From Plasmodiophora brassicae (Eukaryota): a stretch of DNA of 64,000 nt. A model generated the notes under the pieces. The model was not told the DNA's origin, searched no databases, and was given only the letters and a program-made list of their open reading frames with translations. The position numbers and the translations under genes are program-made. Positions 14,531 to 62,800 of this stretch are shown here, piece after piece. Numbering within the stretch: the first letter of the stretch is position 1; every line of letters begins with the position of its first letter. The DNA is taken from positions 1,054,001 to 1,118,000 of the forward strand of contig CP145416.1 of NCBI GenBank assembly GCA_036867785.1, in the 5' to 3' direction.

Positions 14531-17500
14531 TGTGCTAACGCCGCCGCTGCCCACTACGGGGGCGGTCGGTCGCAAGAGTCGGCGCCTGGTGATATAACGA
14601 ACTGATGTATTTGGACAGGATCGTCACAGCAAGGGCCGCTGCGGGGTCGAGTACGGTCATGATCATGTGACCGGGTGGCAGCAGCATCTGAGCAGCATCA
14701 TCTGAGTACTGGTACTCTGGATGAACACTCCCCGTGTTAGAAATCTGCTAACAGTCGTGAGCAGAGCGGGTCTCCTTCGGCTTGTCGTTCGAGGAAGGCC
14801 CTGACGATATCAGGAACATCGGCCGCCATGACCGAGTAAGGTTCCCATGAATTGTCGGTGGCATCGAATCCGATCCAGTTGATCAGTAGTTCAGTGTCAC
14901 CTGACGTAGAGTTGACTCGAATGTCCTCGACTGCGTTGACTTGGTAAGCCACGCCGGTGAGCGCGATGTTGTGCTTCAGGGAAGAGGTGACATTCAAGTG
15001 CGCATCTGCATAGAACATTAAGCGCTGGGCGTGTACATCTGAGATACGATCAGTCAAGAGATCTCGAACTCGATACACCCAGTCGTTGCTGGTGTCGATA
15101 ATCTGGGCAGGTCCAGTCCAGTTGTACTCGGACTTGGAGTGCTTGCCATGGTTGGCCACGAGAACATAGTCGCCCGTCGTGAAGTTGATCTCGCGAACAT
15201 TGCGTCGGCGACGCCGGGCGCGTTGCTTGAGATCACGTAGATGGGTGCGTGTACGTGCCACTGCTTTGTGCATGTCCTCGAGAGAATCGATAAGTTCCGT
15301 CGTCATTTCCTTGAGACGGTCAGGGGTCAACGGTACGTCGATAACCGCGTCGATGCGTTTGTTGAAGATAATCGAGATAGGTGTCGAGGGTGGCAAACCC
15401 GTAAACATCGTGACAGGCGCGTAGCCCACACTTGATCGAACAGTGTGATTTACCGTCATGTTGATCAGCGGAAGGACATACGGCCAATCCTGGAATGGAA
15501 GATTTAGCTCGGAGAGGAGGGACTTCAGCAGAAAGAGAAGCCGCTTGTTGACAACCTCAACCGTGCCGTTCGCCCAAGGTGTGTAGGCAGTTGTGAAATG
15601 ATGGTTGCAGTGTAACCGGCTATTAAGCTCGGCGATAACCGCGTTTTTGAAGTGTGTGCCGCGGTCAGAGACATGTTGGAAAACAATGCCGAAACGTTTG
15701 AACCAATCCAGAAGAGATTCGGCGACAACGCTGTGATCCGCGAATTGACAAGGAATTAACTCGACGAATGCCGTGGCGTCGTCCTTCAGAACCAGAACAT
15801 AACGAAGTTGATGAGAATCGCCTGGACGAGGTTTGGATAAGAACAGAAAGTCATAGTGGATGACCTTATTGGGCTTGTCCGCATGCATAGCCGTGCCAAA
15901 AGGTCGGGGAATCATCGAATCTTTGTTGCGTAGGCAGTGTAAGCATTTGTCCACAAATGCACGAACAAAGGAATCCAGATCAGGCCACCAGAAGAGTTGT
16001 GCGATGCTCGAAATAGTCGATGCAGCAGGTTGATGACCAGACAGTCCCATATGTGAAATCACTGCGATGCGTAGCTGCAGTGCATGTGATGGTACCCAGA
16101 GTTGATTGTCTGGAGTACGCCAGCCAGATTCCGGGCTAAGGTGGAGAGACATGTCCCCTTCGAGTTGGAGAATATCGGAAACGGCAGATAGGTCGTGTTG
16201 GCGAATGTAGTCGGTCTGAGCGTTACTAATCTCGTCGACAGACGGCCAGATAAACTCATCGGTCATCTTGTAATCGTCGAAGTCAAGATTAATTGCCATA
16301 TGACGAATAGAACGGAACGATGGAGGGGAAAATGAGGAGAGTGGTTGCAGGGCGACGCCCCACCGCGTGGCGAGGTCGGCCCAAACGTTGTCCTCCCCAG
16401 CAATGTGCTCAATGTGAAAATCTAGGTCGATAATCTGAAGTCGCCAGCGCTCCAAGCGATCGCCGGTCGTCCGACTAATTCGTGCAACCGAGGCTGGGTT
16501 CAGAATGAAAACCAAATTACGGTGGTCCGTGAAGATTCGAAGTGCCAACTTTGACATAGATATGAAGTGTCTGAGGCGATAGCAGCCTTCGATGATGGCG
16601 TAGGCCTCCTTCTCAATGGTCGCCCACTTCAATTGAGAACCACGGAATGTCCCCGAGATGAACGACAAAGGTTCGTGGTGTTGCTCACCGTACGGAAGAT
16701 CAATATCTTCCGGAGGGATCTGCGACAGGACAACAGACCAGAAACGGTCACTCGCATCCGGAAAGAGACACATGATCCATTCGTCCTTGGGGTGCGCCAG
16801 CGTCATGGCCTCCGATAGACGATGCTTCAGAGAATTGAAACTGGTGAGATGGTCAGTGGTCCAGCCGATGTCGGCTAAACGAACTCGACGTAGGTGTGAT
16901 TTCTTCAGACTGCTGACAGAACGAGAAGCGGACAGAAGTAGATCCTGTAGCGGATGAACATGTGCCGCGAATTGAGGGATAACAGAACGGACCCAATTGA
17001 GGCCCGAGAGGAACTGTTGGAGATCAGCAGCCGTGATAGGAGTTGATAGATCGTGCAAGGCGTTGAGATACGAGCGATCGAACGACACTCCATCAGCGGA
17101 TATAACGCGACCGCACCATGTCACTGAAGTGAGATATAACTGGCAGCGATCAGGGTTGAGTTTAACTCCAAACTCGTCGAAAGCGTTGAGAAGAGATTCG
17201 AGTGTGTCCATGTAGGCTCCGAATCCAGATACGTAGCCGAGGATATCGTCGATCCAGAGTAGGGCGCAGATATATAGAAGTTTCCCCAACACCTGTTGCA
17301 TTCCCGCCTGGAACGCAAACACGCAATCAGCGATTCCCTGGATGATGCGCCTGGGTGTAAACGTGGCGATGTGCGTCATGAACGAGCAGGCCTCCTGCGA
17401 ATCAGGGTGCAACGGAAATTGCCAATAGCCTTTAAAGGCATCGAACAGCATGAAGATGGTCGCGGAACGTAGGTAGGTCAGGATGATGTCGATGTGAGGC

Positions 17501-19866
17501 ATCGGCCATGCAATGCGTTCGGTCTGTTTGTTGACGGCTTCATTGATGTCGACGGTCAGCCGATGGCCGCGAACCTCCGTGTCCTTCTTGTCGACGACCA
17601 GACACGGCGACGCGTACCTGCTGTGCGGATTGCGGTACACAAAATCGTTTTCCGCCAAGGTTCCTACGTGATCATCCATGAATTTTTGATGTTCGAGGGT
17701 ATACCTTCGTGTTCGGCAACGAACAGGACGAGCATCTGCTTTGAAGTGTAGTTTCAGTGGACTTACTTTCGCAGGTGGATCACGGCCAAGCTTCGTTCGC
17801 CATATGTCTTTGTGTCGATTGACAGTTGTGCGTAGACGCGGGACTTGATCGTTAGGGAAACCGGAGTCAGTTGCACGTTGTATCATCCGGTCTATTGCCC
17901 TGTCCACGTCTGTATCGGAGTGTTCTCCGATTTCGACATCATAGTCGTCACCCGGATCATTGGTGTCCAATTGGGGCTCATGATCGCGAGTTGTTCCACT
18001 TACCTCCGGGTGTCTTACCGCTCTCATCGTGATCCCTTGACCACCTGGGGCGTGACGTTCCGGGGTCGGATCCGCTTCGATGATGATAGGACCATTTGCC
18101 TCGATTAACATCTCCTTCAGTTGTGTAGCTGGATTGATACCCAACGCGTCCAGTTCCGGGGCTCCTAAAAGGACAATGTCATCAGATAGGTCTTCGCGAC
18201 ATACGTTGATTTCCCGCCCGCGTAGATGTGCAGGTTTGCCATGCGAAGGTGGGACAATGGTGATGTCCACGATCGCTGTGGCGACAATTGTTGTCGTAGC
18301 CCCGATCGTTGCAAGTTTCGCCTCCGTTGGATGGTCGAACACTTTGACTGGGACATGCTGGATGGCTTGAATCCGTAGCAGTTGCGATTGCGAAATGACG
18401 GTCTTCGTCGCACCACTATCGGCTTCGAATGGAAGGTCGAGCGAGTTCTGGAAGCGAAGTCTCATAGGGGACGGTGTTGACGGCGACGGCGGGCCCATGC
18501 GCTTTGCCGTGTCTGCGTTGCCCTTACTCTCCTCCTTCTCTTTGCGCTCTTTCTGGAACTTTTCAATGGCAGCTTTGCGTTCTCCTTGAGTTGCCTTCGG
18601 GCACACTTGGACCCAGTGCTGCTCCTTGCAGATTAGGCAACCTGCCTTTGGAGGATCCTTACCTTCGAAACGTTTTCGGATGTGCTCGGGGATGTCCCTC
18701 GATTCGTCTTTCGTTTGCGATGTGGACGATTGAGCTGTCTTCAGTCCGATCGGATTTGTCGGATGCTTGCCGCCATTCCTATTCGGAGCAACAACGTCCT
18801 TACCTTTCTTACCTGCAGGTGGGGACATGGTCTGCGCTGGAGACTTCTTCTTCTCAGCTTGCAGCCGGAAGTGTTTGTCCTGCTCTTTGGCAAGACGGTC
18901 GACGAGGTCGAAGAATTTGAGCTCGTCCTTCTCAGCGTCCCTGCACCCTCCGAACTCGATCGCGCGTTCGACTAGAACCGCAAGGTCAGTGGGACGGATA
19001 CCTCCGCGTAATACCTTGATCTTGCGCTTGGTTCCTTTCGTTCCTTTGGCGTATGTGTCTTGTAGCCCATAGTCGTCGATTAGCTCATCGAACTTGGCGA
19101 AGAAAGACGTGACACGTTCCTCAATACTCTTGATTGACAGGTTCATGACCACTGTCTTCGTGAGAAGCGCCTTGATGTCTGTCGAACTCTCGACATCAGC
19201 CTCCCTGCGTTGGACTGACCTCAAGTAGCTCATGATGTCGCCATCCGTGATCGTGCTGGCGGGTTGACGTAGGCGATATTTCGACATCCCTCTGAGGACG
19301 TCCTCGGTAATGCATGACTTCACCGTTGGCGGATGAATATCCTCCTTGTAGATCAGTCGGCGCTCGTTAACGATCTCGACGTGTTTCCTATATTTCTTGA
19401 GGAAATCGTTAATTCCGTCCTTGGCCGTAAGGCTCAGGGTACGTAGGATGGGCGGTTTCAAAGGCATAAAGATCGGGCTCTTACCGTGCAGGTTTGTTGA
19501 CTGAAGCCCTCGATCGATTTCGTCATCTGTCGACGATTCATGCTCCTTGGCCTCGGCGTCGGAGTTGGTCCTGGCGTCGTCCTCCATCTGTAGACGAACG
19601 GGCGCTCTGCGGCCACCTCCTGCCATTAAGTGAGTTCGTTTGCTTGGGGCTCTTTGCGCAAGAAGCTTCTGTGCTAACGCCGCCGCTGCCCACTACGGGG
19701 GCGGTCGGTCGCAAGAGTCGGCGCCTGGTGATATAACGAACTGATGTATTTGGACAGGATCGTCACAGCAAGGGCCGCTGCGGGGTCGAGTACGGTCATG
19801 ATCATGTGACCGGGTGGCAGCAGCATCTGAGCAGCATCATCTGAGTACTGGTACTCTGGATGAACA
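14531..19866 (-). mobile_element. Full-length Ty3/Gypsy chromodomain-bearing LTR retrotransposon
   Basis: 197-bp LTRs at 14531-14727 and 19670-19866 (TG..CA), identical by eye; 5-bp TSD agatc; single intact ORF. Confidence 0.97.
14737..19626 (-). CDS. Gypsy gag-pol polyprotein (Gag with zinc knuckle, PR, RT, RNase H, IN, chromodomain)
   Basis: CLICKEQHWVQVC knuckle; ADSGA protease; FDAFKGYWQ and LLWIDD in RT; DAS...EKEAYAI...TDHRNL RNase H; HHCC plus SDRGTHF...NGTVE integrase; C-terminal LLINWIGFDATDNSWEP chromodomain. Confidence 0.97.
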   Translation of the reverse strand: MAGGGRRAPVRLQMEDDARTNSDAEAKEHESSTDDEIDRGLQSTNLHGKSPIFMPLKPPILRTLSLTAKDGINDFLKKYRKHVEIVNERRLIYKEDIHPPTVKSCITEDVLRGMSKYRLRQPASTITDGDIMSYLRSVQRREADVESSTDIKALLTKTVVMNLSIKSIEERVTSFFAKFDELIDDYGLQDTYAKGTKGTKRKIKVLRGGIRPTDLAVLVERAIEFGGCRDAEKDELKFFDLVDRLAKEQDKHFRLQAEKKKSPAQTMSPPAGKKGKDVVAPNRNGGKHPTNPIGLKTAQSSTSQTKDESRDIPEHIRKRFEGKDPPKAGCLICKEQHWVQVCPKATQGERKAAIEKFQKERKEKEESKGNADTAKRMGPPSPSTPSPMRLRFQNSLDLPFEADSGATKTVISQSQLLRIQAIQHVPVKVFDHPTEAKLATIGATTTIVATAIVDITIVPPSHGKPAHLRGREINVCREDLSDDIVLLGAPELDALGINPATQLKEMLIEANGPIIIEADPTPERHAPGGQGITMRAVRHPEVSGTTRDHEPQLDTNDPGDDYDVEIGEHSDTDVDRAIDRMIQRATDSGFPNDQVPRLRTTVNRHKDIWRTKLGRDPPAKVSPLKLHFKADARPVRCRTRRYTLEHQKFMDDHVGTLAENDFVYRNPHSRYASPCLVVDKKDTEVRGHRLTVDINEAVNKQTERIAWPMPHIDIILTYLRSATIFMLFDAFKGYWQFPLHPDSQEACSFMTHIATFTPRRIIQGIADCVFAFQAGMQQVLGKLLYICALLWIDDILGYVSGFGAYMDTLESLLNAFDEFGVKLNPDRCQLYLTSVTWCGRVISADGVSFDRSYLNALHDLSTPITAADLQQFLSGLNWVRSVIPQFAAHVHPLQDLLLSASRSVSSLKKSHLRRVRLADIGWTTDHLTSFNSLKHRLSEAMTLAHPKDEWIMCLFPDASDRFWSVVLSQIPPEDIDLPYGEQHHEPLSFISGTFRGSQLKWATIEKEAYAIIEGCYRLRHFISMSKLALRIFTDHRNLVFILNPASVARISRTTGDRLERWRLQIIDLDFHIEHIAGEDNVWADLATRWGVALQPLSSFSPPSFRSIRHMAINLDFDDYKMTDEFIWPSVDEISNAQTDYIRQHDLSAVSDILQLEGDMSLHLSPESGWRTPDNQLWVPSHALQLRIAVISHMGLSGHQPAASTISSIAQLFWWPDLDSFVRAFVDKCLHCLRNKDSMIPRPFGTAMHADKPNKVIHYDFLFLSKPRPGDSHQLRYVLVLKDDATAFVELIPCQFADHSVVAESLLDWFKRFGIVFQHVSDRGTHFKNAVIAELNSRLHCNHHFTTAYTPWANGTVEVVNKRLLFLLKSLLSELNLPFQDWPYVLPLINMTVNHTVRSSVGYAPVTMFTGLPPSTPISIIFNKRIDAVIDVPLTPDRLKEMTTELIDSLEDMHKAVARTRTHLRDLKQRARRRRRNVREINFTTGDYVLVANHGKHSKSEYNWTGPAQIIDTSNDWVYRVRDLLTDRISDVHAQRLMFYADAHLNVTSSLKHNIALTGVAYQVNAVEDIRVNSTSGDTELLINWIGFDATDNSWEPYSVMAADVPDIVRAFLERQAEGDPLCSRLLADF

Positions 19867-28024: not shown

Positions 28025-30857
28025 TCACGATCGGTCAGGGTCTTGATTCCTGTCGCCCGCACCGAGGGATTTCACGTCTGCAATCAGCTCGGGTGGGACA
28101 TCCGACTCGGGAGTTCGCGACCTGATGGCCTCCTGAAGCGCACGAATCTTCACCAGCTCATCCTCGGATGCCTTGAGCACGATGACCAGGGAGTCGATGC
28201 ACTGACTAGGAGCGTGAAGGACGATACCACGACTACGCGCATGCGCAAGGATGACAGCCAGCAGCAGGACCGCCTCGGGTCGTGATTCCGCTCGCAGTTG
28301 GTCTTGCAACTGTTTGCGAAGGCCAAAGACAACGAGCTTGATACGTTTGCGAGTGGATTCTTTGACTAAAATATCGGTCTTTGCAGCGATATCCCTGGCT
28401 GCGTTCAGGCAAGCCGACGCCGGCATCGACAACATTGCCGTCAGCTCCTGCGAGATGACGGGTGCAACCTTTGACAGCAATTCGGAGCGTAGTTCAGGAG
28501 TTAGATCACCCTGGGAGATCATTGGTTCCTAAGACACAGCGGTATTAAGCCCTCCCTATAACCTACTTTTGCACTTTCTGGAAGGTCGACACCGTTGAGC
28601 AGGATCTGAATCCGCAACAGGGTATCGGCAAGATTCGAGCCAACGGTCTTGACGAGATACTTGTCGAGAGCGGTAATGAGCCCTCCGTCTACATTAGGCA
28701 CTGCGTTAAGCTCCTGAATAGCTTCAAGAAAGACCTAAGCACTGTCAGCAGATATCGCACATGCGGGTAGTCCTAGTACTTGATAATGCTCGAGCAGGAC
28801 CAGGATCGTCTGAGTGAACTCCTTAAGAAGCTTGCGCCTTTGTGGGACACCAGTAGGTGCTTCCACGTTTTCCCCGCCCGCCATGATAAACGGGGAGTCG
28901 CGAATCTGCATCCGATTGCTAAATAACATTCCAGTGTGCGTACACGAATGACCTTACCTGTTCAAATTGAGTCTTGAAGGAAGGCGCAATAATACTCACG
29001 ATCCCGTTGATGAGCATGTCGTCACACTGACTGTGAATCTGCGACAGCTCATCTCGCAGAACGTTGGTATCGAGAACTGGTCTCCCTAACACTGTACGGG
29101 AGAATGATTACGAGTTAAGCCGTCCAGTACAGTCTAAAACGTATACCAAATTGCTCTTCCAGATCGGCATCTGCTCTGCGAGAACTCCGCTTCTTCGACG
29201 TCGACCCTTGTTCGGAATCATTGTCCTGTCCTTTCTTCCCAGACCTTTTCTTGGACTTCTTAGCATCATTCTCAGGAGATACTAGTGCAGCAGCAGGCCG
29301 GTTCTTCGACGCAGAGTGGACAGCAATAGCCGCTTGCTTGGCAAGATCCAGAACAGTGGGTTCGACATGTGTCGCACAGGCTCGAAGAAACACGCTCGAA
29401 ACTACATAGTACTGGAGACCGATTGAATTCCCGAATCAATGACGTCGAGCAATGATTCACCTTGGACACATGATGACATTTCTGCGATACATCATTTGCA
29501 GCCGAGTTGACAGCGTTGACAACGTTTTCCACGATGGGCGGCACGTCAGAATGTGCCAGATGTTCAGGAACTATCGTCCGCATATCAGTCCACGTGCCGG
29601 CAGCGATTAGGTCTTCGATGGCACATCGCACCTACCACATATCGTGTGAACGGGTTATTACCAACGTCAATACGCGATACGCATACGGTTTCAACGACAG
29701 CTGGAGACACAAAGACTCGCGGGAATGCGATCCCACTCGGGAACAGTTGCGTCAAGTAGGGTACTGGCTTGGAGATGCCGATTTCAGTCAGCCGACTAAG
29801 CTCAATAAAGCTGACACGCAGTAAGGTTCCTCCATTGGCAACCATCCTTCCAAATTCCTTACTTGTTCTGCGTGTAAAAGGACCGAACTGATTTCTCCTG
29901 AGCGCGGCACCAAATCTCAGGCGTGTAAAGCCCTAAGATTGATACGTGAGCATATTCGTCATACGTGAAAAGAACGTGTGACTACCAAGTCCACTCGTAC
30001 TGCCAGACAGCGTGCCGGGCAACTGTCCAGATTCCACCGCTGACTGCACGTATTGTCGAAACATCTTTTCATTCAGCGAATACGTCGAAACAAGAGACTG
30101 CAATGACGTAGGTTTGGTGCACGCCGTCAATAGACCGCGAACCTGTTCATGTACATTAACGTAGGCCTTCCGGCAACGTGCTGTATCACGTACCTTAGCG
30201 TTATGTGTCGCGACGTACGAATCAGTGAAAACGGTCTGATTCTGGACATGGAACGCGGGACCGTCCGTTAGCGTTCCTAGCCGCTCGGTCAACGCCGACG
30301 TTATCAGAGCAACTGGTAGGCCGTATTGCTGCGACAATGACGACGCCGTGAGCAACCCGGCCTCCTCAACGTCTGACGTGATATAACTGTCAATGCGGAT
30401 GCATCGAGATGACACCGAGCGGTGTGATCAAACCATGGGCAATTTCTTGGCAGATAGCATCAATGTACGATTTGTGGATCAGGTCGCCCGCAATAAGAGA
30501 TATAGCAGACGAAGCAGCAAGCTCGTGTACAGCCTTCTCAATATTAACCAGGTCAACATTCAGCAGCTCCGGCAGATCAGTCATCGAAAGACGCCCGCCA
30601 TTGGATCGGACCTCTTCAATGATTTCCGAACGCAAACGACCAGGCGTCACGAACTAAAGCGCCCGTCAAGTCGAGGATGTCTGTCCGATTCCCGAACCCC
30701 GCACCTCTTTGCCCGTTGACGACGACAGGACTCTGATTCGCTCCGTGGCGATCAGCCTAAGGACGATCTCGATACAGTTGCGCTCCGATAAGCGCTGCAC
30801 GACGTCGGCGCATTGCGCCCGCTCGAACTCGGCCTGCAACGCCGCCAACTCATCCAT
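28025..30857 (-). CDS. UFL1: E3 UFM1-protein ligase 1, multi-exon
   Basis: MDELAALQAEFERAQ...QRLSERNCIEIV; GGRLSMTDLPELLNVD; K-rich loop KKSKKRSGKKG; C-terminal LLLAVIL...LHAP. Confidence 0.92.
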
Positions 30858-30888
30858 CGTCGTCGTCGCCGCGGAACTGCAATAAAAA

Positions 30889-33800
30889 GAGTGTTGCGAA
30901 AAAAGTTCGTACGAACTTACGAACTTCGGTACAAAAAAAATGACCTTTACGAACTTCGGTACAAAAAATGACCTTTACGAACTTCGGTACAAAAAAAATG
31001 ACCTTTACGAACTTCGGCATAAAAAATATACCTTTATGAACTTCGGTGTATAAAACCTTGGCGAACACTGACGTACTTAAGGTATGTAGTTTGGCGGGCT
31101 TCGGGAGGGTGCCTACAATGAACCACATGCAATCGTACCGTCAATGCCAGCGACGGAATTGTGCCCGTCTCGGCGCAGACAGATAACGGACGGATTCGTT
31201 CGGCGAAAAGAACAGCTTTGAAAGATTAACCGCGTAGCGCAAACGTATTCACAGCACTATAAGGTCTGTATTGAACAGGCCGAAACCGCAGGAAACATCC
31301 GACAAGACACGATCACTTACGTTCGTTCAACAGGCTGTTTCTTGTTCGCCATTAACGGCGCGCTGGCGGGATCGAAGGGAGGACAGGGGGTTCGTGTTTC
31401 GCGCCGATCGCGCTCCTCATGCCTGGACAGTCATAGGTCCATCAACTGTCACCCACAATGTCATTCCGAGGTACCCAGTCCCGGCCAGCTGGGTGCGCAA
31501 AATATCGTCTGCTTCCAGCAATGTCGTCAGCTCTACCTTCTGAGCAGCTGTCAGCCCCGTCGTCAGGCATTCGTCCGCCAAATGGTACGACAGCTGCTTA
31601 TTCCATTGACGCAGCTCGTTTCGGGTTACAATAACCAACCGGCGCTGGTCCCGCTCTATGGCGTTCCCGCAGGTTTGGCAAAGCGGCTTAGGGCCTCTGA
31701 CCGAAACCTGTTGAACAGACATCCCCAGCGGATAACGTTTGCGCCTCTGTTGACCACGTTGCTCGCTTCTCTGATCGCTGGTCCCAGGTGACCGCCCCTG
31801 ATCACTGATCAGACATGGTGGGGAAAACTGACGGCAACGTTTCCGAAGGTGTAGGCGGATCATTTCGACTGTCGGGGGGCACAACGCGGGTAGCAGGACG
31901 GGGGGTTTGCTCTGAACTCGTATCCGCATTTCGAGCCGGTCGATCAGTCTTAAGATACCATAAGCGCCCGAGCACGTGTCCATTCAGCGTTCTACTATCC
32001 GCCTTGCGCACACAGGGACTCATCATGCCGTCGTAATACACAAATTCCCCTCTCAGGAGGACGAGCGATGCGAAGTGGTTTCGGCGACAATTGCGCACGA
32101 CCATGGCGGCAAGGTCATATTGCCATGCTCCGAAGGTCAGTGTCACCGGTTGTGGAGTATTCCACGCGGCGCTGCGTTGTGGTAAGTCGGAGTGAAGAAT
32201 AATTTCTACCAGTGGCGGATAGTGCTGGATGACGTAAGATTGCAGCGACAAAGACCCTGAGCAGGCAGCAACGTGAGATTCCTGCGGATCGACACAGGTC
32301 ATGTCGATTGCGCTGCATGTCAGGAACCCATTTTGGGAATCGAAATCCCTGCCGAGGTATGCATCAACCATCGCCTGGGTTACAGCCGAAGAGCTCAGCT
32401 GCATGATGTTCCGGGAATCAAAGTCCAGTAGAGCGCACTCCCGAGTCCTTAGTGCAACTCGGTTGTGGCACGAAGAATTCGAACACAGTAGCCGATCCGC
32501 GATAACCATCCTGAACAAGTCTGGAACAACATTGGAGAAATTGTCTCCAAAGTTGTTCCACATGTCGTGGTGGCCGGTTGACGGATAGCCTAGGCACCGC
32601 GTTGCCCACAGGAATCGGGCTTCCTCATGAGAGCCTTGCCCAATAAGGGTAACTGCTTCCAGCAATTGGGGGTGGCTTGCAGGTATATGTAGACCCCAGT
32701 ATTTCTATGAAAATATCGGTATCCATCGACGGTCAGCGAGGCGCAGTCGCAGCACGAGTGAAAACGTACATGTAAGATGAACACCGTCATTAGGCCTGTG
32801 TCCACCGCGCAGGTGTTGACTGCGTCAAAGGCTCTGGACATGAAACATCAACTGCCGTTCGCTTCTGTGTTAACTGCCAACTGCTTACCCGTAACGGAAT
32901 CCCCAAGGAAGACTGTGTCGTGACAACGCGTCATGATGCACAGGAGGCGGATCATCCAATGCCTCAACAGGCGACATGACCTTTTCTGCTGGAGGAGAAC
33001 GAGGGCCTTTAGGCACTATCGTCGGCAGCAGCAGATCTGCACCTTCGTCGCGCCTAGACGGAATCGGACTTGATGGCGGCACAGTCTGATCGGGTTGATA
33101 CCAAACGCGGCACACTTTGGAGTGGCGGAACTTCTCCTTTTCGGGCCGCGTCTTAAGCCACACTAGTTTTGTTTTCGACATACCATCATAGAACAAGCAG
33201 GCACCCCCAATGTAGATAATGGACGTGAAATGTCCCCCCGAACCGAATATGACTGCTGCTAACCGGAATGTCGTGCCGTTCAACGTGATGGTACAGGATG
33301 GCTTAGCTATGCAAGCGCGAGGCACGTACTCGAATTCAAGTATCAAAGGTGGCCCAATCACGAACTTCCAGCGGGAGAGCGTGCGCACCCCCGAACACAT
33401 GTATGCGCCCCCCTGGTTATCGTCCAGCACGCGAAATGCACTATCAGGCTTCGAAAGCCTAAATGCTTCGTCCACACTCTGCGTGCAGCGCGTGACCCTG
33501 TCGCCAATCAATGAATCCACCATAGATTGTTGAACAGTCATGGAAGAATCGTCGACGTCAAGGTCCTCTGGAATTACTTCGAAACCTGGTCGGCGCATCT
33601 CAACGCGATTCGATCGCTCTGGACAGTGCTCGGATGTGCAGTCAGACTTTTGCACAACGGTAAAAAGAACAAATTCGGGACGAAGCGATGCACAATATCT
33701 TCCACAGTGCCAAACAGGTCCACAATATTGGACTTCGGTATCGTCGGCACGTGATTGCCTGCGAGCCACAGCAGACGCGCCTCATTATTCCTCTCCTGTG

Positions 33801-36391
33801 AAATAAGATCCATGACCTGACCGAGCACAGGACTGTCGTTGTCACCTGACGGCAACCGAAGCTTCCCGTACTCGAAGAGCAGGTAGAGAGTCATGAGGCC
33901 CGTGTCCATCGGGCACGTATTGGTAAACCGGACACCGTTCGAGGTGAACCCCCATGGGATACCGAATGTTTTCCAATCCACTAATGATCCAAGTTTGGGT
34001 ATCGTATTCGTGCTCCCAGGTGGGCGCCCTCGTAGTTTCTTGATGGCGTTGACCGATGCAGATCGATGAACCGATTCCTTTTGACGTTCGCTCCGCTTTC
34101 GAAGAAGGTCTTTCGTTGTATCCGGGGGCCTGCCATCAGACCGAGTCTTCTTTGTAGATCTAGATCTACTAGGATTGTACCGCTCCTGAATGCCAAGACA
34201 AGCATTGGTGTATGCCTGCGCGATTTGTTTGACGAACAAGTATATGGGGGGAATGACGGTGACGATGGATTGTTTTCCGTTGCAGCAGCGTTTTAGACTG
34301 CCGCCAACGCTTTCCTGCGCGTTCGTGTTATTTGGCAACAGCGAGATGTCCCCTGTTGCCAGAGCCGGAAAGATGTGTCGACCTCTCAGCTCGTGGAGAT
34401 GCCAATCGAGCCATCGCCGTGCTTTCGGAAATCGCTGATACAGAAACTGTAGCCGGTTCGCGAAATCAATCGGGTCGACTACAATCGTGAGCGACAAAAC
34501 TGTTTCGTAAAATAATGCCTTGTCATCAGGGTGGATGACACCAGCGTTTCGAGATACACGGCTTAGGGTCCGCTTAAAATGCACGTCGCAATAGCGGTAG
34601 AAATGATCGAGCGCCAGAACGGCATTATCATCCAAATGACAGTGCGCCCTGAGAGCTGCCTCAAACCCAGCACGTTCAGCGTCTGAAAAGTCGCTGGTGT
34701 TGCCCGGGAATTGGTGTTCCCATGCGTCCACATCTACCGGCATTTCCATTGTGCTGAAGAGAGTCAGGAAGTGCCGGCGGTAATGTGCAGCACTCTTGCC
34801 AGTCAGGATCGATATCAATAACGGGACGTGACGCGAAAGCATTGGACAGTATGCAGTCGTCATCGTTACGTTTGCGTCAGGAAGTATGGGATCGACAAGG
34901 ATGCCTTCGATGGAATCGGACTGCATCGGAGATTCGCAAGCCCTTGCCCTCTCCTGCATGAACGCTGTCTGCAGACAAAGCGCATCGGAACCGATACATA
35001 CGAACAACTTTTCACCGATTTCCTTTTCAAACGCTAGTACTTCAGACAAGGATGAAGTGGGCGGCTTAATGAGTTTGGTCTTGATGTACCTGAGGCGGTC
35101 AATGTTCGCCAGGCTGTGATGAATCTCACCTGATGCTGGTCGAGTCATTGTACCCATCTGTAGCTGCTTGGGAGTGAGTTCGGGCGCCGTATGAATGATA
35201 TGAGCGAGTTCATCCATTGCTTGGGCACTTGGTCGTATGGCTTCCGGTTTGCGATGACGATGGTATCCCTGATGAATGAACGTAATGATATGGGGGTTGT
35301 CGCTAGTTTTCTCGATGATTAAAATTGCCCGACATGCAATATGAGAAACTGGACGATTGTGCACAGAGCATGTCGCAGGACAAGGCGCAGGACGACAGTG
35401 TTTTGAGCGCCGCTTGGGCAGTTGGGGACGAACGGTGAACCCGCATCCGTCCACTGGGCAGACAAACACCCCCAGACATGACTTCTTCACTCGTACAGAG
35501 GAGGTACTGAACCGCGCCATGGACCAAGATGTGTTCAGGTATGAAACCTTCGATTCGTCAGTGGGTACAGATATGGTGTACGAAATGTTTCCATCCGGCC
35601 ACTCTGGATTGATCTCGGCTGGCGTAGCAACCTCGTGCACGGGATGCTGTCGCAGATGATGGGTTCGCCCAGCAGGAAGGGGCAAGTGGGGGTCTCGCGA
35701 ATCCTGCTCGGCCGCTGAAGTATGGACGTCGTCGTTCGCGCTGGTACCCCGCAATGTATGTAGAGGAACGGCCAAGTGCCGGTCCCGCGAGTCGTGTTCG
35801 GCCGCCAAAGTATGGCCGTCGTCAGCTGGCGTCAAATCACGATCGTGTGTCCTGGCAGTACCGTTATGCCGCTCAGCTACACCAGCCACTGCACGTCGCG
35901 AGTCTGACAGCAAGTGGCTTCGCAGAAAAGAATCCACCCGAGCGTTCCACTCACCGTTGACGTCATTTGCCAAGAGCAGATCCAAAGCCAGACGGCATAC
36001 AAGAAACTTCGTAAATTCGTCTGTCTTCGACGCCATCAGCCCTTGCTGCCGACAGGCACGCCTGCAAGAATAGATCGAGACCAGCTCCTTAGTACGGTGG
36101 GACGATTCCATGCATAGAGAAGCTGGGTTATGTACTCTGTATGCTCAATCTCCTGTAGATTACATGATTTTTGTTAGCCTGCGTAGAAGCAGTGTTCGCG
36201 TGTACATGCCGTTGTAAACTCAACTGTTTTACACCGAAGTTCATAAAGGTATATTTTTTATGCCGAAGTTCGTAAAGGTCATTTTTTTGTACCGAAGTTC
36301 GTAAAGGTCATTTTTTTGTACCGAAGTTCGTAAAGGTCATTTTTTTTGTACCGAAGTTCGTAAGTTCGTACGAACTTTTTTCCATACACCC
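30889..36391 (-). mobile_element. Mutator-like (MULE) DNA transposon with long TIRs
   Basis: 9-bp TSD caataaaaa (30880-30888 and 36392-36400); TIRs of about 165 bp built from about 29-bp tandem units acctttacgaacttcggtacaaaaaaatg and a terminal palindrome aagttcgtacgaactt. Confidence 0.92.
31417..36111 (-). CDS. MULE transposase: GCM domain + DDE core + two USP/papain-like protease domains + PARP-type zinc finger (spliced; one frame break near 33665)
   Basis: EWPDG..SWSM..KKSCLGVFVC..RP..IACR..GYHRHRKPE (GCM); SDS..SDFSDAE..YCDVHF..NTNAQES (D, D, CxxH, E); two copies of NTCxxDTGL...HFxS..YDG; CQTC..YHLADEC. Confidence 0.75.
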
Positions 36392-36682
36392 CAATAAAAA
36401 TCCCACCGTGATTTCCAATGTATTATACGTCAACCGAATCACCCACACGTAGCCTCCAACTGTGCCGTGGTGTGTCGACCTGCAGCGGAAAATGGGCACA
36501 GCCACTTGGCCATTTGCGAAGGGTGAGGTTTGGGAACGGGGCAGCAGCTGCCGAGTGCCGCGAGACGGGTAGTGCGTGAGATCCTGGACAGGACGAGGTC
36601 GTCGCGCCGAGCCAGCGATGCAGGGGGCCGTTGCCCGCCCGCAGCCGCCGTTACTCCACAGTCACAGATATCTGTGCTGTCG

Positions 36683-38308
36683 ATGGTGAACTGGCGCGAT
36701 CTCATCCGTCGCCCGTCGAAGAAGCACGACGACGCAAGTCGTGCGGTCGAGGAGGAAGCGCTGGCAATAGTGCCCTGTAAACGGTTCGAAGATCGGTAAG
36801 GGAGACGATGCGTACGCCATCATTACCCATATTTCATACGTTGTTTCACGCAGAGTCGCCGCATTTGAATCGTGTTTAATGAGCCCTGTAATACCGCTGA
36901 ATGTCTTCCGGTCTCTTGCCTTCAACGGTGTCCCAGAAAAGAACGGTCTTAGATCCATCTGCTGGAAGGTACACTACGTGTTATTGCTAACGGCTTCTGC
37001 GGCTCATGACCTATGTGGCATAGATCCTTCTGGGCTACATGCCACTGGATCGGAGCGAACGTGCTGAGTCCCTGCAGACTCAACGGGGGCATTACTACAA
37101 ATTCGCCCTGGAACTGCTTGTTAACCCGTTCCAGGATCGCACGCCTCGTGCGGTTGCTGTCGAGCCCGTCCCCGAGCAGATTGAGAATCCTTTGCTGGAG
37201 ACATCGGGTGGGACGTCGGAGCGATCCGGTGTATGGAGTCAGTTCTTTGACGACAAATACCTGCACGGCGAGATCACGAAGGACGTCCACCGGACACATT
37301 CCGGTATCCACTTCTTCTCACAACAGATCGATTACTCTGTTTTCATGCCGCGCGCGTCGTTCGGAGAGAAAGGTGAACTCCTAGACAAGACGAAGCGGCA
37401 GTTTGAGACTCACCACGACGTTATATCGCGGATTCTTCTTTTGTATGCCAAGGTTCGCTCGGAATATCCCATGTTGTCGGATAGCGTTTGACCGTCTGGA
37501 ATAGCTGAACCCGGGCGTACGATACGTCCAGGGCATGAACGAGATACTGGCGCCCATCTACTATGTTTTCGCGCAAGATCCGGACCCATCTTTCAGGATG
37601 CACGCGGAACCCGATGCCTTCTTTTGTTTTACACTGGTCATGTCGGAACTGAAGGTTCGTAAGGTCCTAACTATTGGGTGCTGCATCTTTATATCGTGGC
37701 AGGATCGTTTTCTTGCGAGCATGGACGGCACGGATTCAGGAATCGGCTCCTGCATCGAAGAGTACAAGGATGTCTTACGACGAGCCGACCCGGAACTATT
37801 CCTTCATCTCGAAATGCATCATGTCGATGCGAGGTACTATAGCCTCAGGTATGGTTATCTTTTCGTTGCTATGATCGGTACTGACGTCCTGGGTAAGATG
37901 GTTTACTCTGCTCTGTAGTCAGGAATTCCATCTCCCGGACGTGTTGAGACTATGGGATTCGCTATTCGCGGATCCATACCGGTTCGACTTTCTACAATAC
38001 TATTGCTGTGCAATGACCATGTTGGCTGTCGCTCGGGCGATCGTCATGTCCCCCTCCTTTTAACGGAGTCTGTTTTCAGATGTATTCGGTCCCGTCTATT
38101 ATCTATGGGATATTCGGAAATGCTCCAGACGCTGCAGCGATACCCTCAAATAGGTATGCACGCTTATTCAGGTATATATTTATCTCACCATACCGTGTAT
38201 GTAGATATGCTGGAGGTTCTGAACAAAGCAGTGCATTTGAGGACCCACATGACGGGGCATCGCGTTTCGTTTTCGGAGAATATTCCATACACGCACAGAG
38301 GTCCTTAG
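36683..38308 (+). CDS. TBC1D13: TBC-domain Rab GTPase-activating protein (TBC1D13-like), multi-exon
   Basis: GVPEKNGLRSICWK-ILLGY; EITKDVHRTH (Arg finger); LNPGVRYVQGMNEILAPIYYVF (Gln finger); EPDAFFCF. Confidence 0.88.
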
Positions 38309-56833: not shown

Positions 56834-59800
56834 TCAGGATCGGAAGAGGGAATCCAGGATTGCGCTCGCAGTTCGCGGGCTCCTCTTGTGCAGGCGGTTT
56901 TGCTGAGGGACCGGTACCGTGTACTCCTTGTACATGTCGAACAGGGTGACGGTAATACCAGCTAGCAATGGCCTACAGTCAAACGTTACATTAATACAAA
57001 TAACCGACAATTGTCGTATTACCCAGCAACGATTCCCTCTGGCCCAAACACGTACACGCCCATGACAACGCTTAGCCCGACAAAGTAGCTGTTGCCAGGT
57101 ATATACGACCGTATGATAGTGTCAACATAGATATCAGCAAACAGATGGGATACGACAATGATCAAACTGCGGACGTGATACGAGTTGAAGGCCACCCCTA
57201 TGGAGGCTGGAACCCAAATGATCTGGCGGGGCATCGTCAAAGCACGAACAGCGCACGAAATATTAAGATCACTCTACCCAAGTGCCCATGACCGGCATGA
57301 TTGACAGGATGCCGGTCAAGCAGGAGAGAATTGATTCAAGCAGTTCGAAGCGCTTAGGAAAGTGAAAGTCCCCAGTGTATCTAACGTGGGGGAAGCCGAC
57401 GTCCCCATGACGTCGCACACACAGTGGCACGGTCGCCACTGTGCACCAGTTGCGTCACGTCGTCGTGACTCATGGGTCGGCCACTGTCGCTAGCCTTCCC
57501 ATTATGAATCAGCCGCCCTAAGGCGCCAGCGACAGGTCCACCCGACCCATCCCGGCCGCCCTCTTCATGACCTCCACAGGTTCACGAGTGGTCGGCTTGG
57601 TGAGCGCGTCCGCCGGATTGTTCTTTGACGCCACGCGCTCGAACCGGAGCAGTCCCTCCTGGACGCACTCTCGCACATAGTGCCATTTCACCCGAATGTG
57701 CTTGTTCCGGTCCGTGACCCCGAGCGTCTTCACCATCTGCTCGGCAGCCGTGTTGTCCTCCAGCACAATCGACGGGTCCGTCAGAGTGAACCCGATGTCG
57801 GTGAGGAGCATCCGGACCCACACTACTTCACGCGCCAGCTCGCTGGCCGCCACGTACTCCGCGTGCGCTGAGGAGGTCGCCACCAGGCTTTGCTGCTTCG
57901 ATCGCCAGCTCACAGCTGCGTCCATCAGCGTGACGATGAATCCCGTGACCGACTTGGATGTGTCCGGGTCCATCGCAAAGTCCGAGTCGACCGCCGCCCG
58001 GGGCTCCGACTCCTTCACGTTGTCTTTGTTCAGTGCCATCGGGTCGAATTCAGTCGCCGGTGTCTTGCTCTTCGCGTAGATGATGCCGACATCCGTGTTG
58101 TTCTGGACATATCGCAGCACGTGGAGCATCGCCTCGAAATGCTCCCGACCCGGGTTGTTCAGGTGACGCGACAGCTGCGACACCGCGTGCGTGATTGTCG
58201 GCATCGTGCCGATCGACAGATGCGCCAGGCAACCAACGCCCTCGCGGTACCGCTCATGCTGGTGCGGAACACCGTCGGTTCGCCGGGGCATAATCTGCCC
58301 GACAGGCAGAGCCGTGGCCGGCGCGCGCAAGCGGCGCCCGGCGGCTGCCTCGTCGATGTCGGTCTGGAACCGCGCGACCACCTCCTTGGCGTACTGCTGT
58401 TGGTCGATCGTGATGCGCGTTGCCTCCTGCTTGATGCGCATCCCCAGGATCCATCTCGCGATGCCGAGGTCCTTCATCTTGAACTTCTTGCCCAACGCTG
58501 CCTTGACGTACTCGATGACGTCGGGATCCGTGCCAAACATCATAAAGTCGTCCACGAACACCCCGAGGATCGTGATCTGTCTGCGGCCGTCCTTCGTCGT
58601 GAACATAACGAACAGGCACGGGTCGCCGGTCACCCTTGTGAAGCCGATTTCGAACAGAACTGATACGAGCTTATCGTACCAGAGCTTCGGCGCCTCGACC
58701 AGGCCGTACAGCGCCTTCAGGAGCTTCATCACCTTGCCGCGTCCTCCGACCACGAAGTTCTTCGGCTGTTCACAGTAGATCGGGTACGGCAGGTCTCCAT
58801 TCAGGAACGCCGTCTTAACGTCCAGCTGGTGGATGACCACGCCCAGCATGGCCGCCAGCGCCACCATGATGCGCAACGTCGCATACCGGAGCGTCGGCGA
58901 GTACGTCTCCTTCTGGCCCTTGAACTTGTCGCAGCATCCCTTGACGCAGAAGCGGGCCTTGTGGCGCGTGATCTCCCCGTCCTCGTCGCGCTTCGTCGTG
59001 TGCACGAACATTGTTGGCAGCACTTGAGCGTCGGTCGGGCGGTCCACGATCTCATACGTGCCCGCTTCCTTCAGCGACTGCATCTCCTCGACCTGCGCCG
59101 CCAGGTACTTGTCCCGGTCAGGCCCGTTCTCGGCCTCGTACTCAGTGAGGAACGCGTTGCCAGCGTCCTCCTCCTCCAGGTAGCTGTCCTCGTTCTCGAG
59201 CGCCTCGTCCTGGTTGACCTGGTCCTCGTTGTCCGGGTCGTCGTTGGCCTCGTTGTCGTGGTCGACAGCATCTGCTGCTGCCGCCTGGTCGACGTTGTCG
59301 GCAGCCCCTGCTGCCGCCCTGGCGCTGGCCGCCCTCTGGCGCCGCGCTTCGCCGTCGTAGTCCACGTCGGCAAACCGAGCGGGCGCTCCTCTGATGCGCG
59401 TCGACCGCCTCGGTTCAGGGACGCCTTGAGCAGCAGGTCCTCGATCCCCGCCGCCCTGAGCTGCTTGCTCATCGCGTCCGTCATGCCGGTCTTCACCGGC
59501 ACCTGCGAGTTCCCTGGCACGGTCGTCCCCGCCGCCGCCTCGCTGAATGGCGCGGCCATCCTGGCCGCCGCCCTGTTGTTGACCGACGCGACCTTCTCGA
59601 TCGCCGTCGTCTTGTCGTGCGACGCGATCGTCCCGACCGCCGTCGTCTTCTTGCCCATGACGATCGTCTTGACCGCCATCGCCGCCTCCTTGCAGCTGGG
59701 CTTGCGCCGTCTCTTGGCGCTTGCGGGTCTCCTCTCCGCGGGAGCCGCTGTCATCCTTGAACGGGAATTCGTTGGGGAAGAAGACCACGTCCGAAGACTC

Positions 59801-62800
59801 GATCATCTTGCGGCTGTGCCACAGCAGCAGCCGGTACGCCTTCTTGTCGATGCACACCCCCATGTGGACCGCGCGCTCGGCCCTGGCGTCCAGCTTGCAC
59901 TTCTTTTGCCGCCGGATCCTGACCCACGCCTCGCAACCGAATGGCATCGCCCTCGACAGGTCTGCTTGTTCCCCCGTCAGTTCCTCGATTGGCGTCGTCC
60001 GGTGGCCGTGTCGTTGGAGCGGCACGCGGTTGGCTACCCACGTCTGATGCCGCCCGTTCTCGGTCCAGTACTTGCGCGGGACGCCTGACTGGACACGAGC
60101 TGCGCGCATCATCTTGACAATCTTGCCACCGAACGTCTCCGCGAGACCGTTCTGGTGCGGGCGGTCCGTGTCGCTGAACTCCTGTGCGATTCCCCGCTCG
60201 CGCAGCAGCTTCGCCAGGCGCGTCGAGGTGAACTCGCCGCCCTGGTCGGCGCGGAACGTGTCGACGCGTGTGCCGCCCATGACCTCGAGCCGGGTCAGCA
60301 CGTCCATGACGACTTGCTCCTGGTCACCCTTATTTGCCAGGTTGACCGTGGCACCGACACCAGTCGCGTGGTCAACGTAGCACGCCATGTACGTCTTTCC
60401 GTCATGCGACCTGGTGTCGAACGTCTGCAGGTCCGCCCCGACGATCTGCAGCTTCGAGAGCACCGTCCGTGTCCGTCTCCGCGGGATCGCCGTTCGGTTG
60501 AGGTTGGCCTCGATGCACACCTTGCACCTGGGCACCTCGTCGCTCGCCAGGTCGGCCTCGTCGATGTTGAGACCGGTGATTGCCCCGTTCTTGACTGCCT
60601 TTCTGATCGTGATCGTGGACAGGTGGCCGCACCTCGCGTGCGCCTCCGCCAATGATATCGTTCTGTCGCGCTTTACGTCCGCGGGCTTGCGCGTTTCCTT
60701 CTTCTCGGCCGGCTCCTCCTTGCTCGGGCTCTTGTTTTCTGGCTGGTTTGGATGATCGTGATCGGGGGCGGCCAGCGCCACCCCCGCTACTCGAAATCCT
60801 GGACCTTGTGCAGATCCAGGTAGTACAGGCCCTTGCGGACCGTACTGGTCACGATCGTCCTTCCGGCCCCGTCCAGGAGCCGGGCTGAGCGCGTCTGCTC
60901 ATGGTGCTCCGCGCCCGTCTTGCCGTCCTTGCCGAGCTGCAGGAGTGCCGAACGCACCGCGAAGATGTTCGCGGATGCATCTGGCGCGTACGCGACGTTT
61001 GTCAGCGTGATCGACTTGCCGTTAGCCAGCTTGAGGCGGACGTTGCCCCTGGCATGGACCTTGATTCGCTGCGGGCCGATGCCGCCGATCGTCGGCCGGT
61101 CCTTGTCGGCGATGAAGTCCAGCTCCTCGAAGTGCGCCTTGTGGGTGGACACGTGGCCGCACGTCGCCGCGTTGTCGACGATGAAGTCGCGGATGCCCTT
61201 CCGCGGCGCGTCCTCGACGCCCGCCAGGCTCGTCAGGAGCGCGATCGACGCCGAACCGCCTTCCTCTTTGCCCCCCTTCCGCTTGCCGTTCCTGGCCTTG
61301 CCGCGCTCGGCGTTGCCGGTCTTCTTGCGGCTACGGCAGTCGGCCGCCCTGTGTCCAGCCTTTCCACAGTTGAAGCACTTGCCGGAGAACCCCGTCGTCG
61401 TCATGGCCGCCGAGGAGCCGCTGTCGTCGTCGCCGCGCTCTATCGCTCCCCGCTTGTACTGAGCGAGCACTTCTGCGCGGACCTTGCTTTGCGTCAGCTC
61501 TCCGATGGGACCGCGCAGCATCGCGTTGACTAAGTCCTTGTACTCGGTGTATGGCAGCGAGATAAGGACCTTCGTCGCCATGTCCGACTCAGTCTTCGTC
61601 CGATTCGGATCCGCCCGGGCCAGGTTGATGCCCAGGTCGCGCATCGCCGTCAGGTGCGCCTTGGTCTCCGTGAGGTCGGCGCCCGCCTTAAGCTTTGTTG
61701 TTGACAGAAGAATGTCGAACATCGCCAGGTCCGTGCCCGTTTGGCCGGAATACTCCGTCTGGATGGCGCTCCACGCCAGGTCCGGACGGTCGTCGGGTAT
61801 GTCGAGTATCAAGGGAAGTTCGTCTTCATGCACGTTCTTCTTGATAGCGTACATTGCGTGGAGCCTCTCTTGCTCCGACGCCGGCTCTTCGTTGTGCCCG
61901 CGCGTCGCGGGCTCCACGGCCTTTTGCAGGCCCGACTTCTTGAGCATCGTCGTCATCGACGACGCCCAGACCAGGTAATTGTCCTTGCCCTTCAGCTGGA
62001 CGGAGATCTTGATGCCGGACTCCTTCAGGCCCGTCAGCCTTTCCTTCTGCGCAGCTTCCAGCCGCGCCAGACGATCCTTGAGCGCCGCGTTCTCGCGCTG
62101 GCCGGTCCCGCTCCCGGCCGCCGCTGCTTGCAGACGTTCAACCTCCGCCTCCAGCCGATCCTGCTGCCGCTGGGCCTCGGACAGCGCAGCGCTTATCTGG
62201 GCGATCACGGCCTCTGCTTGGGCCAGGTCGGCTGGGATGCTTGGGATCGTCGCCATCAGAGAGTGGGACTCTTAATCTGATTCAAGCAGTTCGAAGCGCT
62301 TAGGAAAGTGAAAGTCCCCAGTGTATCTAACGTGGGGGAAGCCGACGTCCCCATGACGTCGCACACACAGTGGCACGGTCGCCACTGTGCACCAGTTGCG
62401 TCACGTCGTCGTGACTCATGGGTCGGCCACTGTCGCTAGCCTTCCCATTATGAATCAAGAATGAGCGTGAACTGGATGCCGCAGATCTGAAAGGTTACAT
62501 ATGTTATGATTGCGTGCACAACGCCTATGCAAAGGTCAGGAAACGCCAGTCTAGGCGCTGACATCCACGTACCGATCAAAAGCGAGCACACGACTGTGCG
62601 AACGACGCTCCTCTTGAGACTCTTCACTAGGTTCCTCGTATCTGCCTCAGAGAACGGTGACAAGTCCTCGATCGTGCCCATGTGTGGCTCCGTCAGCAAG
62701 TAGAACAGGAACGACAGGAACGTGACAAATGCGACAATTGCATTGCTTGTACGACTGTCCAGAAAATATATCAATAAGTTCCTGAACCTCCAACAATATG

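Follow-up and report, generated by a model that had tools for sequence, protein, structure and literature searches.

The closest described counterparts of the transposon considered here are the MuDRF elements, which Cantu et al. (2011; PMC3164196) named as a 'distant branch' of the MuDR superfamily, four rounds of PSI-BLAST having tied them to the other MuDR transposases, and which they reported from Basidiomycota and Naegleria. According to that account, MuDRF elements encode one protein in which a GCM domain, 'specific for MuDRF elements', is combined with a DDE transposase, and they are associated with a 9-bp duplication. Here we analyse a 5.5-kb transposon at 30889-36391 in a stretch of 64,000 nucleotides (the window) from Plasmodiophora brassicae (assembly GCA_036867785.1, contig CP145416.1, positions 1,054,001 to 1,118,000 of the forward strand; coordinates below are those of the window). 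With MuDRF-1_PSt and its relatives it has in common a GCM domain and a DDE core in one protein and a 9-bp target-site duplication (TSD); it adds protease modules and a PARP-type finger, and the main text of Cantu et al. (2011) does not contain the words 'protease', 'ubiquitin' or 'zinc'. We consider it probable that the element is a cut-and-paste Mutator transposon of the MuDRF branch, with a four-exon gene for a GCM finger, a DDE core, an AT-hook-like motif, two divergent modules of the ubiquitin-specific protease (USP) type, i.e. C19-like, and a PARP-like zinc finger.

Cysteine proteases positioned C-terminally to the DDE transposase, as in this element, are known from MULE (Mutator-like element), CACTA and Ginger fusions with Ulp1 (C48) or OTU domains (PMC2836005; PMC1702500). 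Those proteases, however, belong to another clan and have another residue order, whereas the modules described here present Cys...His...Asp and a four-Cys ribbon, like the C19 USPs. A fusion of a USP-type protease to a transposase is found in XP_001314237.1 of Trichomonas vaginalis, which joins transposase_11 to Peptidase C19 (Bao et al., 2010; PMC2836005); compared by its description, that transposase is IS5-like and not Mutator, and the passage that presents it mentions no GCM domain, PARP finger or second module. Helitron and Helentron elements carry VTD and OTU deubiquitinases that are active in vitro, including one zebrafish element with tandem VTD domains (Erven et al., 2022; PMC9741609), but these are rolling-circle elements, and the VTD motif is Asp-x-His where the order here is His...Asp. 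Transposon-borne ubiquitin-like proteases are already a known kind; the new part is the presence of USP-type modules and a PARP-like finger on a MuDRF element. A preliminary description of this DNA, prepared from the sequence alone, knew of no earlier account of the whole architecture. For the GCM domain and the Mutator core this has to be corrected, as their combination is that of MuDRF, while for the protease and finger add-on we found no paper: the papers searched describe neither a USP-type module nor a PARP-type finger for any Mutator element, MuDRF included, Repbase, Dfam and supplements lying outside that search. Among those papers a single one uses 'MuDRF' to name a transposon. Transposons are known with Ulp1, OTU and VTD proteases, the purpose of which is unsettled, and the USP type would be a fourth class.

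The GCM finger, the DDE core and probable membership of the MuDRF branch

The GCM-type zinc-finger DNA-binding domain lies at 35233-35604 on the minus strand (residues 181-304 of the open reading frame, ORF), in agreement with the location at ~35240-35605 given in the preliminary description, and matches Pfam PF03615 with 33 bits against a cut-off of 25 (E 6.8e-8). Compared with solved structures, the family profile A3 found mouse GCM1 (1ODH) with an E value of 1e-7 over 137 residues. It is followed by the DDE transposase core (34177-34959, minus strand, residues ~385-645), with the invariant residues D399/D407, D474, C508-x2-H511, W567, W570 and E600; in the alignment A3, the columns of D474, C508, H511, W567, W570 and E600 are invariant. 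The core contains the CxxH of Mutator/hAT-type transposases, and a Trp is conserved in the interval that separates the second Asp from the Glu; this combination of CxxH and Trp has been described for MULE and hAT transposases (PMC5225508).

The homologue P0050 is 30% identical to the window element over 670 residues (E 7e-80), and a feature search of P0050 in the Atlas placed it nearest to a cluster 84% of whose members have PF10551 MULE (score 0.93, 185 of 256 features), which we take as a lead and not as proof. The Mutator assignment is weakened by the Pfam results, as the DDE core of the window had no Pfam match, to MULE or otherwise, and Transposase_mut was found in just one of ten relatives scanned (P0027, E 0.098).

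An exact 9-bp direct repeat, CAATAAAAA, stands at 30880-30888 and again at 36392-36400, and identity between its copies is lost one base beyond either side, giving a TSD of 9 bp. Inside it, the element is bounded by inverted repeats of ~165 nt: the left one (30889-31055, plus strand) begins with GAGTGTT and contains a 30-bp subterminal repeat in 4.5 copies, and the right one (36227-36391, minus strand) has the outer end GGGTGTA, read on the minus strand, and 4.5 copies of a 29-bp repeat. The inverted-repeat arms measure 78-81 nt and are 89-98% complementary. All nine occurrences of the subterminal repeat core in the window fall within the two element ends, against 0.01 expected. The claim of a MULE bounded by a 9-bp TSD is therefore upheld, and with an N-terminal GCM domain, a 9-bp TSD and long terminal inverted repeats the element fits the published definition of MuDRF (GCM, DDE and 9-bp duplication). 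Its presence in P. brassicae extends the range of MuDRF to a rhizarian plant parasite, and its GCM finger is relevant to the origin of the animal GCM factors.

The USP-like modules and the PARP-like finger

Downstream of the core and of an AT-hook-like RGRP motif (residue 694), the protein continues with two USP-like modules, each with NTC, HF and YDG in the order Cys-His-Asp; here and below, residues are numbered in the intact reading of 1538 residues discussed in the next section, in which the CxxH of the core stands at 508 and its NAQE at 597. Module 1 (33090-33969, minus strand) comprises NTCPMD (C733), a four-Cys ribbon, GGHFTS (H961) and YDG (D976), and module 2 has the corresponding residues C1083 (NTCAVD), H1306 and D1321, the Cys boxes lying at 731 and 1081, the HF motifs at 961 and 1306 and the YDG motifs at 975 and 1320. 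The finger motif, CQTC...YHLADEC, follows at 1436. The preliminary description had located both NTC/HF/YDG sets and the finger motif correctly, and its domain order (GCM, DDE, protease 1, protease 2, finger) was right.

Across the family alignments A1, A4 and A6, the modules share a Cys box [FY]-x-A-x-N-T-C-x-x-D-T-x-L, the four-Cys ribbon, the stretch Y-x-L-A-A-x-x-Y-x-x-G-x-H-F, then F-Y-D-G and finally W-Y. In 74 module pieces taken from proteins, loci and the window, some of them redundant, the putative triad is kept in nearly every piece that covers it: the Cys column has C in 37 of 39 pieces (R in the remaining two), the His column H in 61/61 and the Asp column D in 61/61. These residues are retained across distant elements of a little-studied Mutator branch. 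When 1.84 billion representatives were searched exhaustively for the His-box half of module 1, only 34 proteins came up at E <=0.001, two of them identical to the window and each of the 34 with one matched stretch; a word-index search with A2 contributed only two additional proteins.

The assignment to the USPs comes from profile comparisons with solved structures. With profile A4, eight of the eleven matches, and the top eight, were USP46, USP12 and USP15 (best E 0.0075), aligned in two colinear stretches, one over the Cys box and one from the ribbon to the Asp. With profile A6, the top eight of ten were USP12, USP46 and CYLD, USP12 being the best at E 9e-4, and the alignment with USP46 ran unbroken from Cys box to Asp (profile positions 25-279 against residues 29-321, E 0.0073). 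Over the catalytic domains of USP12 and USP46 (PDB 5k1b, 5l8h and others), the match of the module profiles is colinear, taking in Cys box, ribbon, His box and Asp, with E values from 9e-4 to 0.02, although the Cys box of the modules is NTC-x2-D-T where USP12/USP46 have NTC-[YF]-x-N-S. On these sequence profiles, the modules read as real but remote homologues of the C19 USPs. A USP/C19 identity had been suggested in the preliminary description, and to that extent it is supported, for the family profiles, by the USP12 and USP46 matches; its more specific USPL1-like assignment, to peptidase C98 (PF15499), is not supported, one of 31 modules having a match (P0037, E 0.02), whose 15 bits fall short of the cut-off of 27. 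Between the loci L008 and L013, the nonsynonymous distance (dN) in the module is 0.23 and the synonymous distance (dS) 1.4, a saturated value, which is consistent with purifying selection weaker than that on the DDE core.

The finger core, C-x2-C-x28-H-x4-C, occupies 31567-31680 on the minus strand. In the alignment A5, made from the last 90 residues of ten elements, a G, a P, the C-x2-C, the H and the final C are invariant, the putative zinc ligands being columns C23, C26, H55 and C60. With E values of 1.8e-4 and 2.5e-4, PARP1 fragments that include the fingers F1 and F2 headed the matches of A5 to solved structures, and PARP1 accounted for six of the seven top matches. The finger of the element resembles those of PARP1 (zf-PARP, PF00645) in its C-x2-C, in a basic region where one Arg is conserved, and in [YF]H...C. 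Counting against the assignment, the spacing is H-x4-C and not the H-x2-C of PARP1, and Pfam at E up to 1 found DUF7576 in four of ten fingers and zf-PARP in one of ten. Matches to zf-PARP in P0018 (the best, 19.7 bits), L014, L024 and P0050 stayed below the cut-off of 39.3 bits, and the window finger had no zf-PARP match in Pfam. 'PARP-like' is, on these alignments, a fair label: the claim of such a finger is supported by the profile, and a formal Pfam assignment is not.

The preliminary description took the two modules for a duplicated unit. A simple or fresh duplication was rejected, as the window modules are identical at 77 of 247 aligned residues (31%, score 235) and each has its nearer counterparts in other elements: higher scores were obtained for module 1 with L003 (381) and P0002 (366), and for module 2 with P0019 (345) and P0027 (281), which are themselves transposase fragments. 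BLASTP of the two His-box ORFs gave 25% identity, and in a FastTree phylogeny the window modules are not sisters, with support below 0.6. The three introns of the gene are confined to module 2 and the part that follows it (31422-32888), the 3.2-kb first exon having none. Module 2, we infer, came from a different MuDRF lineage or descends from an old duplication lost elsewhere.

Metagenome relatives give the architecture a wider frame. Among 29 loci retrieved with A3, 19 have a single protease module downstream of the DDE core, and two modules were seen in none. The finger is reached in ten, nine of which have exactly one module between core and finger; in the tenth, L026 (7076-8860), a GCM domain and DDE core are directly followed by the PARP-like finger with no protease module between, so that the finger may be older than the protease in the branch, or the protease may have been lost in L026. 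The other nine contigs finish in or just past the core. The ORFs of these relatives are uninterrupted, unlike the gene in the window, and in L003, L007 and L016 inverted ends enclose one long ORF without interruptions, L003 and L007 being compact intron-free natural examples of the family. The arms of L003 measure 136 nt (93%), and its termini, GGGTAAC and GAGTAAAC, resemble those of the window element; a clean target duplication was not found at the L003 ends. No relatives were found in the viral contig collection.

How such a protein might work can be proposed from its parts. The GCM finger would bind the repeats in the element ends, and the DDE core would do the cutting and pasting. The USP-type modules would be active proteases of ubiquitin or a ubiquitin-like modifier, carried along by the transposase and working in cis where transposition takes place; there they may shield the transposase from ubiquitin-dependent removal or edit ubiquitin/SUMO marks on chromatin and repair factors, and the PARP-like finger would keep the C-terminal part of the protein on broken or distorted DNA. 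The pairing of a USP module with a PARP-like finger suggests a testable link between transposition, recognition of DNA breaks and ubiquitin-type signalling. A bolder version, which we put forward only tentatively, is that the two form a deubiquitinase aimed at DNA breaks. Held by the finger on the nicks, hairpins or double-strand breaks arising from Mutator-type excision, the protease would remove ubiquitin or SUMO marks from the chromatin or the repair factors present there, the transposon would thereby steer or mute the host damage response at its own cut sites, and where there are two modules each would serve a different modifier or chain type.

Another function is conceivable, namely that the modules cut the long protein into a transposase and C-terminal pieces, in analogy to the polyprotein processing suggested for the OTU-MULE fusion of Medicago (Babu et al., 2006; PMC1702500). 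The length of the intact reading (1538 residues) and the low-complexity linkers between the modules would suit such self-processing. USPs, however, cleave after a ubiquitin-type Gly-Gly, and by eye no conserved Gly-Gly was seen in the linkers of A2-A4; moreover, most relatives have a single module and no obvious cleavage motif, so that we regard self-processing as unlikely.

A more basic objection is that the modules may not be USP-fold enzymes at all, the matches to USPs reflecting short motifs within some other Cys/His zinc-binding fold or an inactive ubiquitin-binding scaffold. Several results speak in this direction and against our preferred assignment: Pfam UCH was found in none of 31 modules at E up to 10, profile A1 had no match among solved structures, the window modules as single queries retrieved no USP there (nor did the P0004 module), and the best E values of the two successful profiles were just 9e-4 to 0.0075. 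To be set against this are the top eight places held by USPs in two profile searches, the colinearity of the matches, which take in the Cys box, the latter half of the ribbon, the His box and the Asp and with USP46 form one stretch of ~290 residues, and the conservation of Cys, His and Asp noted above, for which an inactive scaffold has no need. Weighing both sides, a non-USP fold seems to us quite improbable, and remote homology to the USPs the better account.

Two distant relatives, P0003 (residues 700-822) and P0004 (670-1017), have tails at the same position with a more canonical USP Cys box. The P0003 tail matched Pfam UCH at E 0.023, and all 24 of its solved-structure matches were the Cys boxes of USP7/USP47 (E 0.3-1). 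As a bridge from the modules to the USPs these tails were dropped, since hhalign gave a probability below 1% for A6 against either of them, a result that again does not favour the USP assignment. An Atlas search of P0050 with the MULE families skipped gave no protease lead.

Gene structure, frame lesions and other copies

The transposon gene lies on the minus strand, where the ORF starts with an ATG at 36111 and is free of stops until 33577, containing in order the GCM domain, the core (SDSIEG, DFSDAE, CDVH, RWLDWH, NTNAQES), the RGRP motif and the Cys box NTCPMDTGL. Exon 1 (32889-36111) covers the N-terminal region, the GCM finger, the DDE core, the AT-hook-like RGRP and module 1. Intron 1 (32834-32888, 55 nt, GT-AG) marks the boundary between the modules; exon 2 (32770-32833) supplies the Cys box of module 2; intron 2 (32705-32769, 65 nt, GTACGT...TAG) lies inside that module; exon 3 (31474-32704) encodes its remainder, the linker and the zinc finger; and intron 3 (31422-31473, 52 nt), after the finger, precedes exon 4 (31317-31421) with the stop codon of the spliced translation. 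Removal of intron 1 links ...LPWGFRYG with AFDAVNTCAVDTGL, that of intron 2 links ...VFILH with KYWGLHIP, and both joins recover colinearity with module 1.

Public runs, compared by means of their contigs, supply the evidence for splicing. Three runs from three studies (X12, X13 and X18) are RNA-like, and are taken as RNA because their contigs splice the host intron 30654-30704; the fourth, X3, is DNA. Intron 1 is spliced in a contig of X13, intron 2 in contigs of X12 and X13, and intron 3 in one of X12, and RNA contigs spanning 33487-35775 show no joint. The GT-AG intron at 32888-32834 that the preliminary description had read is thus spliced in RNA, whereas its single intron has become three. 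The gene model P0006, labelled Plasmodiophora brassicae in NCBI/UniRef, has the same joins at introns 1 and 3; where it covers the end of module 1 it does not differ from the window, it includes the join of module 1 to module 2, and since two residues elsewhere were noticed to differ from the window, we assign it to another copy or strain. The gene family is transcribed, and all three of its introns are spliced.

Two lesions interrupt the frame of the window copy. The first is at a T5 run inside module 1 (33662-33666, minus strand), past which the sense resumes in a different frame (TVVQKSDCTSEHC ... GGHFTS ... YDG). An intron at this place was considered and rejected, and comparison with the second module and the relatives identifies the break as a one-base frameshift. 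The second lies after module 2, where the frame terminates at 31802 and the zinc finger stands in a different frame; this shift coincides with a 7-nt tandem duplication at 31798-31804 (minus strand) ahead of the finger, which is present in X12 and X13 and absent from X3 and X18. Owing to the two frameshifts, the window copy codes for no single continuous protein: in its spliced form it terminates at residue 845. The copy is broken, and the full protein is beyond its coding capacity. This tells against the protein as we reconstruct it, as does the zero cover of 32946-33486 by the RNA contigs of X12 and X13, so that a single mRNA from transposase to finger was not seen. The preliminary description had the whole architecture in one fused protein; the transcribed and spliced join of the two modules accords with this, and the lesions do not. 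With the states of other copies at both the T run and the 7-nt site, the reading is open across 1538 residues, and in this form, with the help of the RNA contigs, the spliced protein proposed there could be built.

Each lesion is missing from some other copy, as judged from the additional base in the T run of the RNA-like runs and from the lack of the 7-nt duplication in X3 and X18. X12, X13 and X18 all have one additional base in the T run (after 33661), at full depth, which restores the frame; in X3 the extra base at 33661 has a count of 0 of 758.6. A linked G>A at 33641 is carried by the same three RNA-like runs and not by X3 or the window. Most simply, 33641 A together with the extra base marks a different, expressed copy. 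Alternatively, the window copy could be alive, the missing base being added at the RNA level by polymerase slippage, as might be thought from its occurrence in all three RNA-like runs and its lack in the window and in DNA. A run of five is short for polymerase slippage. The linked G>A in the same RNA contigs suggests that they stem from a different copy or strain; rare variants are lost from contigs, and the X3 depth over the element is ~2.6-2.8 times that of the flanks; and the 7-nt duplication would break the frame of the window copy before the finger regardless. We therefore hold slippage to be very unlikely and an expressed sister copy the preferable reading.

The word depth of X3 is ~690-760 across the element against ~270 in the flanks, and in each of the four runs, whether DNA or RNA, the contigs are interrupted at 33487 and at 35771-35775, their loose ends having no match in the window; it follows that several copies and structural variants exist. 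Although these breaks bear witness to variant copies, a two-module layout produced by chimeric assembly of two element variants is hardly credible, given that the part left of 33487 alone contains the His-box half of module 1 and the whole of module 2, that module 1 runs on into the Cys box of module 2 in an X13 RNA contig and, independently, in the gene model P0006, and that the bin over 33487 has an increased summed X3 depth of 994.6, as a piece bridging the break would give.

Translated in frame, the loose end at 33487 extends module 1 with a different sequence. The low-complexity N-terminal part (35573-35975), which contains an internal repeat of the DSRD-HL-PL type, differs in length among copies, with skips of 109 and 249 nt in X3, the latter also in X13. 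The copies seem to be mosaics, in which the transposase part is common and the N-terminus and the protease part differ.

The insertion site and the rest of the window

The element sits between two divergent host genes, a UFL1-like gene on the minus strand and a RabGAP-TBC gene on the plus strand. The former, encoding an E3 UFM1 ligase, occupies 28028-30880 (Pfam E3_UFM1_ligase in three exon ORFs, and UFL1_C). Its ATG is near 30857, with the end of the element ~31 nt upstream of it, and the RNA contigs of the gene stop at 30844-30881, i.e. at the edge of the element. The insertion may have replaced part of the promoter or 5' leader of the UFL1-like gene. An Rfam scan of 30000-37500 gave no match.

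Elsewhere in the window, two ORFs for polyproteins of long terminal repeat (LTR) retrotransposons are found on the minus strand, one of the Gypsy type at 14740-19692, open over 1651 aa with RVT_1, RNase H and integrase domains, and one of the Copia type at 57521-62271 with RVT_2 and rve domains and a gag zinc knuckle upstream.

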